A DNA stretch of 50,162 nucleotides from a virus: the IMG/VR virus record IMGVR_UViG_3300045988_054790; one strand, written 5' to 3'. This document shows, one piece after another, positions 1,970 through 14,926 of this stretch. Numbering within the stretch: the stretch's first letter is position 1; every line of letters begins with the position of its first letter. The notes under the pieces were generated by a model. The model saw nothing but the letters and a program-made list of their open reading frames with translations, ran no database searches and was not told where the DNA came from. Position numbers and translations under genes: made by a program.

Positions 1970-2253
1970 TCCTCCGCCTCCTCGCGCAGCCAGTCCAGTG
2001 CGCACAGTTCACATGCCGTCATTCCGTCGCGTCCTTTTAGGTAGCACGTACTGTCACGATCATTGTTCTTGCAGTAGGCCGCACCGTCGTTGCTCAGCAT
2101 GAATTTTGCCAGTTCCTCGTCATTCATTTCTCGAACCCTGTCCGCGTTGGTAAAGACCACATCCGGGCAGTTCTGTTTCCGGGCATTTTTACAGGCTTTC
2201 CCGCCGTAGTTCAACAAGCAGCCGGCAACCCGGCACCGATCACAGAGTTTCAT
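1966..2253 (-). CDS. Hypothetical Cys-rich protein (95 aa)
   Basis: ORF track entry. ATGA overlap with the downstream gene. Multiple Cys clusters. Confidence 0.6.
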   Translation of the reverse strand: MKLCDRCRVAGCLLNYGGKACKNARKQNCPDVVFTNADRVREMNDEELAKFMLSNDGAAYCKNNDRDSTCYLKGRDGMTACELCALDWLREEAEE

Positions 2254-2265
2254 TCCGCCGCCTCC

Positions 2266-3090
2266 TTAACCGTCATAGCACCCGCACGGAGCGCCGCAGA
2301 GGCACCCGCCGGGGCTGTCCGGGAACAACTGGTCAAAGGTCAACTGCGCCTCCTCGAACTCCTTGTTTGCCATAAACTCGTTGTAGTAGCTCTCCCATGA
2401 CCAGTTGCGCCCAAGCCCTTTTACGTTCACGTTTGTCTCGGCGCTCCCGTGTTCCAGCGCGATAGCCCGCTCAAAGAGATCAGGGTAGTTCTCCCACAGT
2501 GCTTGTATTTCTTTCTTCTTCATGGATGGGCAGAAAAAGCATGAACTTTTCCCCGGTCTCGGCAGTCCGGCCCGCTCGATCACGTGCACACATTCCTCGC
2601 GCGTCCATCCCCACTCGTAGAGCGGATAATGTCTTTCGTACTTTTTGTCCGCTTCGTCGATGGGCGCGGCGTGTTGGATGCGCCGCGTCTCCCCGGCATC
2701 GTAGCCAATGTACTTGTGGACGCGCTGGCCGCTGGCCCACACATCCTTGCACGGCTGGTAATTGTTGCAGAACTTCTCCTGCGTCCCGATCTTGTGCTTT
2801 AGAGAACAACGCTTGAAACCGTATGCGATAGATGGAAGCGTCCCGCTGTTGATGCATTCCTGCTCCAGCGTCAATCTGTTTCCGTCCTTGTCGTGGTACT
2901 CCACGGAGACGATCTTTGGGATGCCATGCTTTACCAGCCACTCATTGAACGTCCCCATGAACTCGTAGGTGTGCGGCTGCTCGCCGCCGGTGTCCGCAAA
3001 CAAAATCAGATCAATAGGGATTTTGTGCAGATACATCCCGATAATCATGGCGGTGCTGTTTGTCCCGCCGCCAAAGGAAACAATATTCAT
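2266..3090 (-). CDS. PAPS reductase-like / PP-loop ATP pyrophosphatase family protein with C-terminal Cys cluster
   Basis: N-terminal SFGGGTNSTAM resembles a PP-loop. It also has GKSSCFFCP and a terminal CLCGAPCGC. The overall pattern matches phage phosphoadenosine-phosphosulfate-reductase-family proteins. Confidence 0.7.
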   Translation of the reverse strand: MNIVSFGGGTNSTAMIIGMYLHKIPIDLILFADTGGEQPHTYEFMGTFNEWLVKHGIPKIVSVEYHDKDGNRLTLEQECINSGTLPSIAYGFKRCSLKHKIGTQEKFCNNYQPCKDVWASGQRVHKYIGYDAGETRRIQHAAPIDEADKKYERHYPLYEWGWTREECVHVIERAGLPRPGKSSCFFCPSMKKKEIQALWENYPDLFERAIALEHGSAETNVNVKGLGRNWSWESYYNEFMANKEFEEAQLTFDQLFPDSPGGCLCGAPCGCYDG

Positions 3091-3365
3091 TCCGCTTCCT
3101 CCCCGGCATCGCCGTCCCAGTCAATCGCCTGTCCGCATTGTCCGCAGAAGCGGCAGCGGTTCCCGTCCTCGTTGTGCAGGTATTCGCCGCTCCCGCAGGA
3201 TGGGCAGGCCAGTACACCTGCGTCCCCGTCAGGGTATGGGCTTTCCGGCACACGCCGCCGTAACGCCTCTACGCCCATCCGGCAAGCCTCATTCACCGGT
3301 TCAAGGCTCTCATACGCCTCCCGGTGTTCCGGGTCGAGAATTTCCCGCGCTCTTGCGATTTCCAT
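3087..3365 (-). CDS. Hypothetical zinc-ribbon protein (92 aa)
   Basis: Contains CPSCG...CRFCGQCG. Overlaps the neighbouring ORF by 4 nt. Confidence 0.55.
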   Translation of the reverse strand: MEIARAREILDPEHREAYESLEPVNEACRMGVEALRRRVPESPYPDGDAGVLACPSCGSGEYLHNEDGNRCRFCGQCGQAIDWDGDAGEEAE

Positions 3366-3368
3366 TTA

Positions 3369-3668
3369 TTACATCCTTTCCGCCGCCGCTCGGAGGGCTT
3401 CAATGTCGATAGGAATACCGCGCCCACCCTCATAGTTGATAAACTCGACGACGCTTTCAATGTTCAGCGTGTTCATAGCCAACAGCGCCGCTTCCGTATC
3501 TCTGTTGCAACAGTCATTCCAGAGCATATACAGGCGCGCCCCCGTGATGCCTGCCCGTTGCATCCTTTGAAACCCCTGTTCAGCCTTAAACATATCCATG
3601 TCGTAGGCTTGCATCAGGAATTGCAGCGCACCCGGGTTGCCTGCGCAAATATCAAAAGTTACCATCAT
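3369..3668 (-). CDS. Hypothetical protein (99 aa)
   Basis: ORF track entry; sits in the coupled gene string. Confidence 0.55.
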   Translation of the reverse strand: MMVTFDICAGNPGALQFLMQAYDMDMFKAEQGFQRMQRAGITGARLYMLWNDCCNRDTEAALLAMNTLNIESVVEFINYEGGRGIPIDIEALRAAAERM

Positions 3669-4324
3669 TCCTGCACACCCTCCATTCCGATCTGCCCCGC
3701 GTCCTCCGGGTCGTCCTCGGCCTCCTCGATAACCGCCTCCCGGCGTTCCTTATCCTTGTAGAACTGCTCCATGCAGAGCGCCTGAAATTCCGCAAGGTCG
3801 TTGATGTATTCCTCTTTCAGAATGTTCATGGGCATGATGGCTGCCAGTACATCCATGCCGTCATGCACCACAAGATACCGCTGTCCCGTCTGGGTCTGTC
3901 GCGCCGTGTAATAGATGTATTCGCTTTTCTTGATCTCCTCCGCAAGCGGCGCAAGATACGCCTCGTTGTAGAAGATCAGCTCGCCATCCACCTTGCAGCG
4001 GCAGGCGGAACACCATAGCCCGTTGGGAGCCGCCGCCACTTTCAGTTTTTCCGTGTCCTGCTCGCCCTGCGCATACGGTGCAAGGTTCAGCCCCAGCACA
4101 TTGTTGATACTCTCCGGCCAGTCCTCGGTCAGATACACTTTTTTCCATGCGTCCGCCGTCATGTCCAACACCGTTCGCACCTGCTCGCTGCCCTCCATGT
4201 CCGGCAGCTCCGTTGCCCGGTAGATCGCCGTGCCGGTAGAAAGCCAAATACCGCTGCCCGCCACATGGAGTACGGCGCACCGGCCTCCGTTCTTGACCAA
4301 GTTCGCAAATTTCGATAGCTTCAT
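3665..4324 (-). CDS. Hypothetical protein (219 aa)
   Basis: Internal ATG at 4324 (MKLSKFANLV...) is preceded by GGAGGCGGCGGGA. The upstream part of the 269-aa ORF overlaps another small gene. Confidence 0.6.
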   Translation of the reverse strand: MKLSKFANLVKNGGRCAVLHVAGSGIWLSTGTAIYRATELPDMEGSEQVRTVLDMTADAWKKVYLTEDWPESINNVLGLNLAPYAQGEQDTEKLKVAAAPNGLWCSACRCKVDGELIFYNEAYLAPLAEEIKKSEYIYYTARQTQTGQRYLVVHDGMDVLAAIMPMNILKEEYINDLAEFQALCMEQFYKDKERREAVIEEAEDDPEDAGQIGMEGVQE

Positions 4325-10207: not shown

Positions 10208-10390
10208 TCACTCCGGCCATTCGTCCCCGCCGATGGCCCTGCGGTATGCCTCGTCGGCCTCCGCGATCTCGTCTCTCCCGGTCACGGTGTCGCCCAGCTC
10301 CGCAAGTCGTGTCGCCAGCACCCGGACGGTACGCGCCTGCATTTCCACAAGCGCCTCCAGTTCTGCGATGATCTGCAAATGACTGCTCAC
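10208..10390 (-). CDS. Hypothetical small protein (about 60 aa, start uncertain)
   Basis: GTG 10390 overlaps the upstream stop (GTGA). The sequence looks coiled-coil-like. Confidence 0.35.
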   Translation of the reverse strand: MSSHLQIIAELEALVEMQARTVRVLATRLAELGDTVTGRDEIAEADEAYRRAIGGDEWPE

Positions 10391-11031
10391 GCCGTCGCCT
10401 CCGTCCAGCCGTATACCCCCGGTTCCCACACATTGGCATCCGCCGTTGATGTCCAATGCTTCCCATTGTGGCTCACCTTGTCGCCCTTTGCGTAAGCGTC
10501 ATGCGCCCCCACCGGCTTGCTCCATTCCGGCCATTCTTCCGCCGGGTCAGATGCCGCCGACCAAAGCGACACCGCCTTGTCCGGTTCCCATCCCGCCTGT
10601 GAGGTGTGCGCCTGTACGCATTTGTACAGCTTGTTCCCCCAGTTGCGTAGCTGCCCAACCGTGTAAGCAACGCCGGTCTGCCACGTTTCAAACAGGCTCT
10701 TGTGCTCCCCCGCAGTCACAGCGTCGATGCTTCCACTCTCCGCCAGCGTCACAAAGGCGATCTCCGTTGCCTTTCTCGTTTCTTCCGTCAACTTTGTCCT
10801 TTCCACATACCTGTAATGCTCGCTGATGGTATAGAAGTCGTACCGCGTCCCGTCCTCGTCCGTGTCGCTGTGATAGTGCCGGTCGATGCGGCAGCGGTCT
10901 GTGATGCTGCTGTCGTCGTACTCCCGCACTGTGGTCAGGTATTCGCCCTCCCGCAGCGCGGGGCCACCCACGATTTTCAGGTTTTCCCGTTCTACGCCGC
11001 CGATAACGCTTGTTCCGTAGACGTATTCCAT
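10387..11031 (-). CDS. Tail-associated protein with two CBM5/12-like carbohydrate-binding repeats
   Basis: ATG 11031 (MEYVYGTS...). The C-terminal repeats are YTVGQLRNWGNKLYKCVQAHTSQAGWEP and YAKGDKVSHNGKHWTSTADANVWEPGVYGW. Confidence 0.65.
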   Translation of the reverse strand: MEYVYGTSVIGGVERENLKIVGGPALREGEYLTTVREYDDSSITDRCRIDRHYHSDTDEDGTRYDFYTISEHYRYVERTKLTEETRKATEIAFVTLAESGSIDAVTAGEHKSLFETWQTGVAYTVGQLRNWGNKLYKCVQAHTSQAGWEPDKAVSLWSAASDPAEEWPEWSKPVGAHDAYAKGDKVSHNGKHWTSTADANVWEPGVYGWTEATA

Positions 11032-12001
11032 CTTGCCCGCTCCTTTCTTGCGTGTTCTCTGACCACGCATTTCAATTTCCGCTGCAAGCCCGTCTCCACA
11101 TAGTTCTGGAAAAAGTGGACGTGATTGCAGTGCTTCATCTGGCCCAGTCTGGATAAAAGCCCCTGCGCCAACGCTGGCTTGATCGCGTGGTGCCGCCGCA
11201 TGGTACGGCGGCAGACGGAAAGAGAATGTTTCAGGCGCACCATGTTTCGTTTCCGCAGCAGGGTATACCCTCGCCCGAAGCGATACCCCAGCGCCGCCGC
11301 AGCTTCCGCTTGTTCCGCCCGAACAAGGTAAAGTTGTCCATGTACCGCAGGTAGTGGTCGCACAGGCCGCTTTCCCGTATCAGCCGGTCAAGCGGTTGCA
11401 GCACCGTGTTGGCAAACCATTGGGAAAAGTAAGCGCCGATCAGAATGCCGTGCTTCATCAGCCGCTCGCATACCTCCAGCATCCGCCGGTCTTTCACCAG
11501 CCGCCGGAGCCGCTTCATCACCGTCTCCGCCGTCAAACTGTCGTAGAAATGGTGGATGTCCAGCTCCTCGGCGTACTTCGTCCCTTTTGGGTCTGTCCGC
11601 ATCCACTTCTTGATGGCCCGAACGCCGTAATGGATGCCCCGGTTTCGGATGCTCCCGCAGCAGAAATTGTCCATGCCCCGCATCATGATCGGCTCCAACA
11701 CCTGAATGACGGCGTGATGCACATACTGGTCAGGCCACAGTCTCGGCTCCGATATGTCCCGCCACTTGCCAGCGCTCTTGTCCCAGCGCCGCGCAAGCCT
11801 CGGCTCGTTCGCCTCGTAACCGCCTGTAATGATCTCTCGCAGCTCTTTTACATAGCGGTCAACGTCTGCCTCCACCCGTGCTACCGTCCGGTTTGGCCTG
11901 TGGTGCGGATGGAAGCGGTGTGTCACGTTCACGGCGAAGATCGCCAGCCGCAGGTTTTCTTCCGATACCAGCTTTGGAAATAGGTTGTTTGCTCGTTTCA
12001 T
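10992..12001 (-). pseudogene. DGR-type reverse transcriptase, apparently disrupted (two frames, YMDN box)
   Basis: ATG 12001 follows AAGGAGG. Motifs are ILIGAYFSQWFANTVL and RYMDNFTLFG. Frame 1 stops at 11231. The thumb-like LGYRFGRGYTLLRKRN... continues in the frame of ORF 10992-11363. Confidence 0.75.
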
Positions 12002-12180
12002 CAGGAATGTTTTCCTCCTTTTAGCCTCACGGTCTTTCCATCGCCCCCGCAGGTTGCGGAAGTGTACTAAACCGTGTCCTGATGGCTTATCTGCACCAAG
12101 GGGTGCCGAGGATGTCCGCGCCCCGGCGTGGGTCTTTGCGTTGCCGGGTGTGGAGGTGGGTAGCCAGTCCATAAAAGGAC

Positions 12181-12319
12181 GCGGCAGCCGATGTTCGCGT
12201 TCGAGTTGGACGCGCTGTTGTAGTTCACGTAGAACAGCCCGTGGTTCCCGTTCTGGTTATAGTTACCGCCGAAGTGCAGACACGGGTTGGAAGCATTGAA
12301 GTTCCAGTTATCCGCCGAA
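12181..12319 (-). repeat. DGR template repeat (TR)
   Basis: 139 bp colinear with 12482-12620. It differs at 15 positions, all T on the plus strand (A in the sense of the target gene). Confidence 0.9.
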
Positions 12320-12428: not shown

Positions 12429-12454
12429 GCAGAGGGGGATGCGTCCCCCTCTGC
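12429..12454 (-). promoter_or_regulatory. GC-rich hairpin downstream of VR (candidate DGR target-recognition hairpin/terminator)
   Basis: 11-bp perfect stem GCAGAGGGGGA/TCCCCCTCTGC with a 4-nt loop. It lies 27 nt from the VR end and 9 nt past the stop codon. Confidence 0.6.
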
Positions 12455-12463
12455 ACTCCCCCG

Positions 12464-14926
12464 TCAGGGGAGTTTTTGGAGGCGGCAGCCGATGTCCGCG
12501 TTCGAGTTGGACGCGCTGCCGTAGTTCACGCAGAACAGCCCGCGGCCCCCGTCCTGGTAATAGCTACCGCCGAAGCGCAGACACGGGTAGGAAGCATTGA
12601 AGCTCCAGCGATCCGCCGAATACGTCGTCTCACTCCCGCCCGATGCCGTGGGATAGATAACCCATTCCAGACCGGCCACTGTTGCCACGGTAAAGGCGCT
12701 GGGCCATCCGCTCGACGGAACACCCACGGCGGTGCCGCCGCTGTTGTCGCTGAAACTGCTGGGCGTGTTGATGATGTTTAGGCCGTTGCTGTTGTAGTAG
12801 CAGCCGTCGCCCCAGTCATACACGTTGTCCCACAGACCCTCGATATAGCGGTACTGCGTACCGATACCATAGCTGTCCCGGCTTGCAAGCGTCGTTCCGG
12901 TGTGATAGGGCATACTGTCCGTATAGCCCATATTCTCCGTTGCGCTGTTGTTGCCGCAGCCCTTGCCGATGGTTTTCTGGCTGTTCCAGTCTGCGAACTC
13001 CACAAGGTACAGCATCCAGATCGTCATACGCATCTGAATGTCGCTCTGCCAGATGTTGCTCCCCAGATTGTGGATGCTCGTGCGGGCCGTGCTGCGTGTG
13101 ATATTCGCTTTCGGCTTTACGCCGGACTGGCTCTTGTAGTTGTTGGTGTTGCAGTGATAGCGGCCAATGTACACAATGTCCCGCTCTCCCTTGCCGTCCC
13201 CTCGGTCGGCATGGGCGGGGGAGACGTGAAAGCCGTCCGTTTCCTTATCCGCGATCTGGAGTTTCAGGCTGTTTCCGCTCTTTGTCCACTTGTACCAGAA
13301 TTTCGGGATAGCCACCAGCTCACCGGCCACCGCATCCGTCACGCGTACCATCCCGCTCCACGGGTACAGGTTGTCAAATGGGCTTCCGTAACTGGTTGCC
13401 CCCGCTCGGTACGGGGTCGGGTTCACGAAGCTGGCCGCCTCGTCTGTGCGGCTCCACACCGTTGTGCTGGTGCCGTCCCACACCACGCCGTAGATGTGCC
13501 GGTAGGCCAGCTTCACATTTACCGTCTGTCCGTCCGCCGTGATGGTTGCGGTATCCTCCGCCGTCTCTCCGTTCTTGGTGGCGGTGATGGTGTAGGTGCC
13601 GCTTTCCGTCACGGTGAAGTCCACTGTCCCCGTTGCAGATGCCGTCTTGCTCTGCGTCTTGCTCCCCTTGGTGCAGGTGACGGTGGAGCCGCTGTCAATG
13701 CTCACATGGATGGTGGCGGTGAAATAGGAGAGCGTCGCCGTGTACTGCTGCACCACAGAGACCGTCACCGTATCCGTGGCAGTCTGCCCGTTCTTGGTGG
13801 CCTTGATGGTGTATGTTCCGTAGTCCTCCACATCAAACGTCCATTTCCCGCCGCTCTCCGTTGCGGTGTATACCTTGGTTCCCAGCGTGGCCGTCACCGT
13901 GGAGCCGGTGGGCGCGGTCACAACGATCTGCGCCGTCATGCCTACCTGCGGCAGACTGTCCGCGCTGAGCTTGCCGTCTGCCCCCAGCGTCGGGATGCCG
14001 TTCGGCACGTTGATGGGGAGCTGATCGGTGTCCATCTTCCCGTCCGCGCCGAGACCTGCCACGCCGCCCGGCGTATTGACAGGGAGCTGGCCGGTGCCAA
14101 CCTTGCCGTCCGTTCCGATGCCCGCAACGCCGCCCGGCGTATTGATGGGGAGCTGGTCGGTGCCAACCTTGCTGTCCTCTCCCAGTCCGGCCACTCCGCC
14201 CGGTGTGTTGACAGGGAGCTGGCTGACCGGCACCTTTCCGTCTGTCCCCAGCCCCGCCTTTTTGGCAAGAGCCGCCGCCACCGCACCGCTGGTCAGCAGC
14301 TTGTCGCTGTTCTCCGTCGGCACCGTGTCGAACGTCTGCGCCGTAACGCCGCCCTTGCCGTCGCCTTTCAGGATACCGCTGGCGGTGATCTTGTCCTGCT
14401 TGTCCGTAATGGCCTGACGGATACCCTCGTGCGCGTTTTCATCCTCGTTGTGTGCCTTGATGGCAGCCGCCATGCTTTCTGCTGTCACCAGCGCCGAAGC
14501 GTCGATGGTCACCTGCAGCGTCCCGCCGCTTCCCGAAAACTCCAGCAACCCGTAGAACGTGTACACGTAGTCCGGCACGTCCGTCTTGCTGGGGATTTCC
14601 ACGCCCGCGTCCGTGTCCGTCTGAAACAGGGCGATCAGCCTTGCCGCGCCGCTGTCCAGCTTTGCCCAGATACCAAGCTGGTTCAGGGGGTATCCCGTCG
14701 CCAGTGGTGTCACTTGCAGTTGCAGCTTTTGCCCCTGCGCCGTTGTCTTGTTGGACAGGATGCTGACTGTCTGCTTTTCACTCACAAGCGCCGTCTGCGC
14801 CAGCATCGCCGCCTCGCTCACGCGGCCCGTTCCCGCCGCTGCGCGGGTGATGGTCAGCGTCTTTCCCGCCGTCCATTGTGCCAGCAGCTCACTGCCGCTG
14901 TTGGTGATAACGCCTTTCCATGCCAC
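12464..14926 (-). CDS. Tail fibre / receptor-binding protein with C-terminal C-type-lectin-like DGR variable region
   Basis: 820 aa. N-terminus MAWKGVITNSG..L is like tail-collar fibre proteins. It has GxDGK..QLP repeats and two Ig-like modules, and the C-terminus carries the VR. Confidence 0.9.
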   Translation of the reverse strand: MAWKGVITNSGSELLAQWTAGKTLTITRAAAGTGRVSEAAMLAQTALVSEKQTVSILSNKTTAQGQKLQLQVTPLATGYPLNQLGIWAKLDSGAARLIALFQTDTDAGVEIPSKTDVPDYVYTFYGLLEFSGSGGTLQVTIDASALVTAESMAAAIKAHNEDENAHEGIRQAITDKQDKITASGILKGDGKGGVTAQTFDTVPTENSDKLLTSGAVAAALAKKAGLGTDGKVPVSQLPVNTPGGVAGLGEDSKVGTDQLPINTPGGVAGIGTDGKVGTGQLPVNTPGGVAGLGADGKMDTDQLPINVPNGIPTLGADGKLSADSLPQVGMTAQIVVTAPTGSTVTATLGTKVYTATESGGKWTFDVEDYGTYTIKATKNGQTATDTVTVSVVQQYTATLSYFTATIHVSIDSGSTVTCTKGSKTQSKTASATGTVDFTVTESGTYTITATKNGETAEDTATITADGQTVNVKLAYRHIYGVVWDGTSTTVWSRTDEAASFVNPTPYRAGATSYGSPFDNLYPWSGMVRVTDAVAGELVAIPKFWYKWTKSGNSLKLQIADKETDGFHVSPAHADRGDGKGERDIVYIGRYHCNTNNYKSQSGVKPKANITRSTARTSIHNLGSNIWQSDIQMRMTIWMLYLVEFADWNSQKTIGKGCGNNSATENMGYTDSMPYHTGTTLASRDSYGIGTQYRYIEGLWDNVYDWGDGCYYNSNGLNIINTPSSFSDNSGGTAVGVPSSGWPSAFTVATVAGLEWVIYPTASGGSETTYSADRWSFNASYPCLRFGGSYYQDGGRGLFCVNYGSASNSNADIGCRLQKLP
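12482..12620 (-). repeat. DGR variable repeat (VR)
   Basis: Matches the TR except at adenine positions. Encodes the last ~46 residues (ADRWSFNASYPCLRFGGSYYQDGGRGLFCVNYGSASNSNADIGCRLQ). Confidence 0.9.
13946..14254 (-). repeat. Tandem ~57-bp coding repeats (19-aa GxDGKV..QLPxNTPGGVAG units) in the fibre gene
   Basis: About five consecutive units visible in both DNA and protein (residues ~225-327). Confidence 0.8.

Follow-up and report, generated by a model that had tools for sequence, protein, structure and literature searches.

A 94-bp deletion in the YMDN reverse transcriptase gene of an Avd-less diversity-generating retroelement from a gut Oscillospiraceae prophage

The locus

The IMG/VR record IMGVR_UViG_3300045988_054790 is a stretch of viral DNA of 50,162 nucleotides, here called the window. 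The DNA comes from a prophage that resides in a human-gut Oscillospiraceae bacterium and in which a tail-fibre gene is served by a diversity-generating retroelement (DGR) lacking the accessory gene avd. The cassette is composed of the target gene with its variable repeat (VR), a hairpin, the template repeat (TR), a spacer, and the reverse transcriptase (RT) gene, in that order (Table 1). In this copy, the RT gene lacks 94 bp and encodes a Y-M-D-N catalytic box. The related loci come from human-gut Oscillospiraceae metagenome-assembled genomes (MAGs) and one isolate assembly.

Table 1. Positions of the DGR features in the window.
Feature	Position	Strand	Basis or remark
RT 3' fragment: native residues ~268-367, LGYRF region and thumb, other frame	10992..11292	-	ORF 10992-11363
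RT 5' fragment: native residues 1-236 (N-terminal extension, fingers, palm through motif C) plus 20-aa out-of-frame tail and stop	11231..12001	-	ORF, RVT_1
Deletion junction, surviving GGCGGC microhomology	11293..11298	-	Alignment to L001-L006
Motif C box Y-M-D-N, TAC ATG GAC AAC, Y220-N223	11333..11344	-	Translation; family-wide trait
IGAYFSQ, the [LIV]GxxxSQ signature of DGR-clade RTs	11420..11440	-	Translation
Motif A catalytic Asp D148 (= Brt D138)	11558..11560	-	Alignment to Brt 8ub7
Non-coding spacer, TR to RT	12002..12176	-	Position; presumed part of DGR RNA, counterpart of Bordetella 'Sp'
Template repeat (TR), 143 bp, 35 adenines	12177..12319	-	Pairs with VR
GC-rich hairpin just 3' of VR and stop codon	12429..12454	-	Two 11-nt arms, 4-nt loop
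DGR target gene, 820-aa tail-fibre-like protein, VR at C-terminal end	12464..14926	-	ORF
Variable repeat (VR), 143 bp	12478..12620	-	Ends 12 nt before target-gene stop codon

The RT gene is read from the minus strand. Its open reading frame (ORF) begins with the ATG at 12001, within a longest ORF of 11231-12172, and reads ...LCDHYLRYMDNFTLFGRNKRKLRRRWGIASGEGIPCCGNETWCA before it stops. This 5' fragment equals the closest intact protein, P0001 (367 aa), up to KLRR, one A/T polymorphism excepted, and is the only part matched by Pfam RVT_1 (E 2.1e-8). The rest of the enzyme lies in a second frame, ORF 10992-11363, which reads ...AAAALGYRFGRGYTLLRKRNMVRLKHSL... and stops at 10992. The 3' fragment has no credible start of its own, is 100% colinear with the C-terminus of P0001, and is matched by a hidden Markov model (HMM) of the family (E 1.6e-41). 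The initial annotation had placed the YMDN letters at 11333-11344, the frame stop at 11231, and a thumb-like continuation in ORF 10992-11363, all of which the sequence confirms. The observed features, the deletion and the diversified VR included, are no chance pattern.

The RT carries the [LIV]GxxxSQ signature of the DGR clade in motif 4. The SQ motif is described as DGR-specific (PMC3521204). By alignment to Brt, the RT of Bordetella phage BPP-1, D148, D222, and N223 correspond to D138, D215, and D216, the three residues named as catalytic in Brt (bioRxiv 10.1101/2023.10.23.563531). D148 is invariant in the family alignment. The motif A aspartate and the first motif C aspartate are thus kept, while a YxDD box with both aspartates is absent. 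The intact RT ORF of a potentially autonomous element is found in the relatives and is missing from this copy.

The TR and VR differ at 16 positions, 15 of which are TR adenines, as is typical of DGRs; the claim that the VR had been diversified therefore stands. The one remaining difference, G>C, lies 4 nt away from the repeat's 3' end and resembles an initiation of mutagenic homing (IMH) site. The VR at the 3' end of the target gene, the GC-rich hairpin behind it, and this IMH-like difference complete the arrangement expected of a DGR.

A 94-bp deletion in the RT gene

When the two fragments are joined as one protein query, more than 1,000 relatives are found. The best of these are 367 aa long, are colinear with both fragments, and contain an additional segment, LRELIEKWLAAHGLRLNGKWQLYPTAKRTVA. 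Six contigs that encode P0001 (L001-L006) serve as the intact references and are ~99.8% identical to the window in DNA. Across 1.7 kb around the RT, the window differs from them by a handful of single-nucleotide polymorphisms and one 94-bp gap, with nothing else disruptive.

The missing segment is exactly 94 bp (31 codons and 1 nt) and encodes residues 237-267. The 6-bp sequence GGCGGC bounds the gap at both edges, and one copy survives in the GC-rich stretch CGGCGGCG. A single internal deletion of a length that is not a multiple of 3 had been predicted near 11291-11302, in agreement with the junction at 11293-11298. The likely cause would be replication slippage or microhomology-mediated repair.

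The distance from the box to LGYRF, previously put at ~14 residues and suspected to be short, is 13-15 residues here versus 45-46 in intact family members. Close intact homologues with the same short spacing in a single frame would have spoken against an inactivating deletion; all have 45-46 residues. The examined canonical YxDD RTs, including Brt, have a comparable length to the intact family in this region.

The AlphaFold model of the intact RT has a mean predicted local distance difference test score of 83, and the PDB entry that matches it best is 8ub7_A, the Bordetella DGR RT. In the model, the lost residues make up the C-terminal two-thirds of the helix that follows motif C (231-247) and strands 251-260. 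The invariant residues W244, L245, and R264 fall within the deleted segment. Owing to the frame shift, the LGYRF region and the entire thumb are missing from the translated product as well. Because palm residues 237-267 are lost and the frame is shifted, the RT gene of this copy is almost certainly non-functional. A dead RT would leave the cassette unable to rewrite its own VR.

The exact 256-aa truncated product is present in two records, the window's own JGI/IMG contig and a 1,230-bp ENA contig (L020, ERR2017783). L020 is 100% identical to 12451-11222 over its 1,230 bp, junction included. Versions of the protein from the 313-aa and 123-aa ORFs are not on record in an exact-protein look-up. 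An exact search with a junction 35-mer gives 0 hits in 2.9 M IMG/VR contigs and 0 in 241 M JGI metagenome records. The intact allele is found in ~20 IMG/VR contigs at 98-100% identity, and P0001 and P0002 represent 819 and 3,944 member sequences, respectively. Contigs from ENA, JGI, and Logan, MAGs of Oscillospiraceae, and one isolate assembly also carry near-identical intact alleles. The deleted allele is rare or private, since its junction is absent from IMG/VR and JGI while intact alleles abound. It also appears to be recent, as neither fragment is damaged further and the 5.4 kb of flank in the window shows 7-9 base differences from intact loci (~0.1-0.2%).

The rarity of the junction amid abundant intact alleles would also suit an artefact of assembly, library preparation, or sequencing, in which case the real prophage would have an intact 367-aa RT. 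Metagenome assemblies of this gene hold many chimeric or truncated forms (P0027-P0031, P0007, P0009, P0064), and the second junction record is a short contig that ends 75 bp beyond the junction. However, a de Bruijn assembler cannot make a 94-bp deletion over 6 bp of homology; a k-mer assembler is not misled by so short a microhomology, which means that the junction must have been present in the reads. It is byte-identical in two archives (JGI/IMG and ENA), and microhomology-flanked deletions are a normal class of biological mutation. Moreover, the RT of a degraded prophage remnant, L101, has an independent in-frame deletion of 195 bp with the same left edge, KLRR. An artefact is thus unlikely, though it is the most serious of the alternatives.

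Other null alleles

L101 (positions 2088-3909) lies in a 37,865-bp contig (ENA ERZ918740) that holds a truncated, degraded prophage. Its homology to the intact phage sets in only 450 bp short of the tail-fibre gene's end, with the bacterial genes Spore_II_R and Thia_YuaJ lying upstream. In a 59%-identical family member, L079:1709-2800, a stop codon replaces the Q of the SQ motif (IGAYFS*), which makes it an independently disabled RT. Its TR/VR pair is retained, with 15/16 mismatches at A. P0064, P0009, and P0007 have other internal RT deletions between short direct repeats. In P0064, MRGMDNF is joined to (Y)MDNF-TLF by a deletion between two MDNF-coding repeats. These three may be true slippage products or assembly chimeras. 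Further frameshift forms of the RT are on record, and all null alleles together are a small minority compared with thousands of intact ones.

The CGG-rich stretch after the box may be a recurrent breakpoint of RT loss that freezes a tail-fibre variant. Examples are the 94-bp deletion of the window, the 195-bp deletion of L101, and several frameshift alleles. As a mutational hot spot, this stretch is suggestive only, because the inspected cluster by construction gathers truncated proteins of similar length.

YMDN as a family trait

Among the best 120 homologues, of more than 1,000, all full-length members have Y[MI]DN, down to ~53% identity, and the single exception is an aberrant sequence reading CLRYVGGFTIF. 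The box is YMDN in 79 of the 80 loci that make up the IMG/VR family set (L021-L100), and in all loci from Oscillospiraceae genomes. The Asn is encoded by AAC in 83 loci and by AAT in 13. The RT genes are saturated at synonymous sites (dS ~1), and their ratio of nonsynonymous to synonymous substitution (dN/dS) is 0.08-0.15, indicating strong purifying selection.

Representatives at 50% identity were searched exhaustively. The nearest relatives nearly all have xDN, usually as DN-x-T, in the forms YMDN, YIDN, QMDN, YADN, YLDN, YVDN, and HMDN; farther ones have YxDD. In a neighbour-joining tree of 98 representatives from 50% clustering, the family falls in one pure-DN clade of 8, and 11 other DN sequences fall at ~6 other spots, in a tree too crude for counting origins. 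A sub-group closest to the family (P0125, P0132, P0143, P0263) reads RQMDNFT together with IGAFFSA or IGAFFSS. These RTs have neither the Tyr of the box nor the Q of the SQ motif, which is thought to underlie adenine mutagenesis.

Judged by its relatives, this RT family normally has YMDN as its active site, and the box has no part in the damage to this copy. The initial annotation had counted the box among the lesions, a view that the family-wide occurrence and the dN/dS of ~0.1 overturn. In the DiGReF set, both aspartates of YxDD are reported to be 100% conserved in DGR RTs, which the family-wide Asp-to-Asn change contradicts (PMC3521204). A literature search found, among the matches listed, no paper that treats YMDN or YxDN in the RTs of DGRs or of prokaryotes, though the variant may still be described; the listed matches to YxDN-type words were the E. 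coli gene yadN, acronyms, and a preprint on an endogenous retrovirus. Catalytic-box variation is discussed in the main text of neither Wu et al. 2018 (PMC5758913) nor Roux 2021.

An Asp-Asn pair in motif C is chemically workable. The L proteins of the Mononegavirales, the non-segmented negative-strand RNA viruses, are active right-hand polymerases in which motif C is GDN(Q), with Asp-Asn where others have Asp-Asp. They are RNA-dependent RNA polymerases and evolutionarily remote, and offer a chemical precedent only.

Signs of activity in the family

Loci that encode P0001 and have identical TRs differ from one another by 0-3 positions in 5,381 bp upstream versus 14-25 in the 143-bp VR. These VR differences are mostly at TR adenines. 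L001 and L002, for example, have 0 differences in the 5,381 bp upstream and 15 in the VR; L002 and L003 are identical to each other. As the VRs have turned over among loci with the same YMDN RT, mutagenesis occurred once the RT was already YMDN. VR differences at identical RTs, TRs, and flanks imply, at the level of sequence, recent mutagenic activity in the family, and the YMDN enzymes appear to be active.

The TR sequence is the same across L001-L006, and one position of the VR is peculiar. At window position 12577 (VR position 43, 0-based), L001-L006 all have C>T relative to the TR (CAC>TAC or TGC), and the window keeps C. Such a fixed non-A difference is unexpected if every replacement overwrites the whole VR. 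The VRs of these six loci differ elsewhere although all carry the change. L002, L003, and L005 additionally have C>T at VR position 76.

In the wider family, 50 of the 80 IMG/VR loci have an adjacent TR/VR pair with mismatches overwhelmingly at A. Among the 30 without an A-biased pair, 20 have less than 700 bp of upstream sequence. Eight loci have ample flank and no TR/VR pair (L024, L031, L033, L048, L074, L076, L095, L097). The 98%-identical locus L027:3381-3824 has 19 TR/VR mismatches with no adenine bias (G 6, C 3, A 6, T 4), and is either a drifted TR or a chimeric contig.

Where contigs of L021-L100 end within 4 kb upstream of the RT start, 21 of the 43 ends fall at 227-808 bp, inside the TR-to-VR interval. 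Such clustering would be expected of VR heterogeneity within a sample or of TR/VR repeat confusion during assembly. L020 likewise starts within the post-VR hairpin, at 12451. The Oscillospiraceae MAG CALDMA01 has two different YMDN members, L015 and L016, which share 61% and 57% identity with P0001. Both come with an A-biased TR/VR pair of their own, so a single genome or bin can hold several of these DGRs.

A catalytically dead YMDN family, with VR diversity that is ancient or comes from another RT in trans, is very improbable. In HIV-1 RT, the equivalent residue D186 is named among the three catalytic aspartates, and this speaks for a dead family, as does the place of D216 among the three named aspartates of Brt. 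The reported conservation of both aspartates in the DiGReF set points the same way (PMC3521204). Against this, dN/dS is ~0.1 across the whole protein, and the Asn is retained through synonymous codon changes. An adjacent A-biased TR/VR pair is tightly and consistently linked to the RT over the whole range of 53-100% identity, VRs have turned over between loci that share identical flanks and an identical RT, and xDN boxes are found in several distinct groups of DGR-like RTs nearby. The 50-kb window shows no other RT.

The family numbers more than 1,000 proteins in the databases, and other xDN groups lie close to it. It is somewhat more likely than not that a large RT family of gut Oscillospiraceae phages performs adenine-mutagenic cDNA synthesis with an Asp-Asn motif C (YxDN, usually YMDN-x-T) and without Avd.

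The fate of this copy

By analogy with Bordetella, the intact 367-aa RT would copy TR RNA into cDNA with misincorporation opposite adenines, and the cDNA would then replace the VR. An active YMDN-type DGR would first have diversified the tail-fibre VR of this prophage. A slippage-type deletion of 94 bp between the GGCGGC repeats would later have killed the RT and frozen the VR. The 15 substitutions at adenine sites would then be a frozen record of mutagenesis before the deletion. The combined reading, that YMDN is normal, that a recent 94-bp deletion disabled the RT, and that the VR is frozen, has a probability of about 0.78.

Several points weigh against this reading. The loss of RT activity is deduced from structure and conservation. 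Both junction records could derive from one source sample, and a sequencing or assembly artefact, or a minority sub-population with the intact gene in the sample, is possible. An RT elsewhere in the host genome could act in trans, given that one MAG has two family members. Within the window, a trans RT was sought with the family HMM against six-frame ORFs of at least 50 aa, and only the two fragments of the broken gene scored. It had been proposed that mutagenesis was either historical or supplied in trans; the historical option is the parsimonious one, and supply from within the 50-kb window is rejected.

Expression of the split gene, by programmed frameshifting at the CGG-rich junction or as two working polypeptides, has a negligible chance, for although the fragments are otherwise undamaged and the 3' frame is open to the native stop, 31 conserved palm residues, including invariant positions, are gone even with the frame restored, the close relatives are all single ORFs of 360-385 aa, and the allele is rare or private.

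The cassette and its prophage setting

Immediately upstream of the target ORF are the P2-type baseplate genes Baseplate_J and Tail_P2_I. L001-L004 and L006 have an 820-aa gene at the same position as in the window. No Pfam domain is found in the C-terminus of the target protein. Between 13200 and 14300 on the minus strand, the tail-fibre gene encodes repeated 'LPVNTPGGVAGLG.DGKV' units, and the gene has long imperfect tandem repeats in related loci; these have no connection to the DGR.

The hairpin behind the VR has a stem of 12 bp when one extra flanking pair (12428 / 12455) is included. Folded as DNA, it has a minimum free energy of -15.3 kcal/mol (z = -4.84), and none of 200 shuffled sequences folds equally well. 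Its position and form are presumably those of the target-recognition hairpin in the DGR of Bordetella phage. The spacer at 12002-12176 is presumed to be part of the DGR RNA, after the bRT-Avd-RNA structures (bioRxiv 10.1101/2023.10.23.563531).

Downstream of the RT, the window encodes a CBM_5_12 protein, small ORFs, a holin, a lysozyme/CHAP endolysin, and an IS30-like transposase. The RT gene overlaps at its 3' end (10992-11070) with the start of the CBM_5_12 gene (10387-11070), which is in a different frame. Several database entries (proteins P0003, P0005, P0008, and P0039) are 569-aa RT-CBM fusions, which arise by a frame change within or before this overlap.

DGRs commonly, though not universally, have an accessory gene (avd, HRDC, MSL, or CH1), and none is detected beside this cassette. 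Pfam finds no Avd-like hit in the small ORFs around it, nor among the genes called in L001-L006. Curated DGRs lack avd in 26% of cases, and an Avd-independent mechanism has been proposed (Wu et al. 2018, PMC5758913).

Comparison with known systems

The Bordetella BPP-1 DGR is made up of mtd, avd, TR, and brt, and its RT belongs to the same clade as that of the window (Brt structures 8ub7-8ubf). Brt is the best PDB match both by sequence (E 2e-15) and by fold (Foldseek E 5.5e-15, template modelling score 0.62-0.69). Both systems have [LIV]GxxxSQ, a C-terminal VR in a phage tail-fibre or receptor-binding gene, a TR just upstream of the RT, adenine-specific differences, and a GC-rich hairpin after the VR. 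Unlike BPP-1, the window has no detected Avd among its neighbours, and motif C is YMDN rather than YMDD. The C-terminus of the window-family RT is also ~40 aa longer, and the RT of this copy is disrupted.

The Faecalibacterium phage FP_Epona (MG711462) has a DGR annotated as a 'BPP-1-like major tropism determinant' and a reverse transcriptase. No other named phage in the phage collection shows DNA similarity; FP_Epona accounts for 2 of the 3 matching records, with 71% identity over 184 bp of the RT. As in the window, the order is target, TR, RT, beside a P2-type Tail_P2_I and with no avd annotated. All 13 of its TR/VR mismatches are at A. Its RT differs in having a canonical YMDD box and LGFYISQ, and is a distant protein relative of the window RT.

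The Avd-less DGRs of Architecture A (core 'TR-RT'; Lineage 3) have a target-TR-RT order with no accessory gene, as does the window (PMC5758913). The main text of that study (Wu et al. 2018) mentions no change in the catalytic box for these DGRs, unlike what is seen in the window family.

Biological significance

For annotation, a YMDN box is no ground for calling a DGR RT dead, as it is the wild type in this family; the real lesion of this copy is the deletion. This copy is an ordinary DGR that was probably disabled recently, and its tail-fibre variant would now be fixed.

The family is of greater interest. It combines Asn at a position where RTs are expected to need Asp, the lack of Avd, and fresh adenine-specific turnover of the VR. 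If true, the family would serve as a natural experiment concerning the third 'catalytic' carboxylate of RTs, and may bear on metal use, fidelity, or Avd-independence. The role of the second motif C carboxylate in RT catalysis and fidelity would become testable with a natural enzyme. From its sequence, a small 367-aa enzyme that needs no accessory protein may also interest builders of DGR-based tools for targeted mutagenesis.

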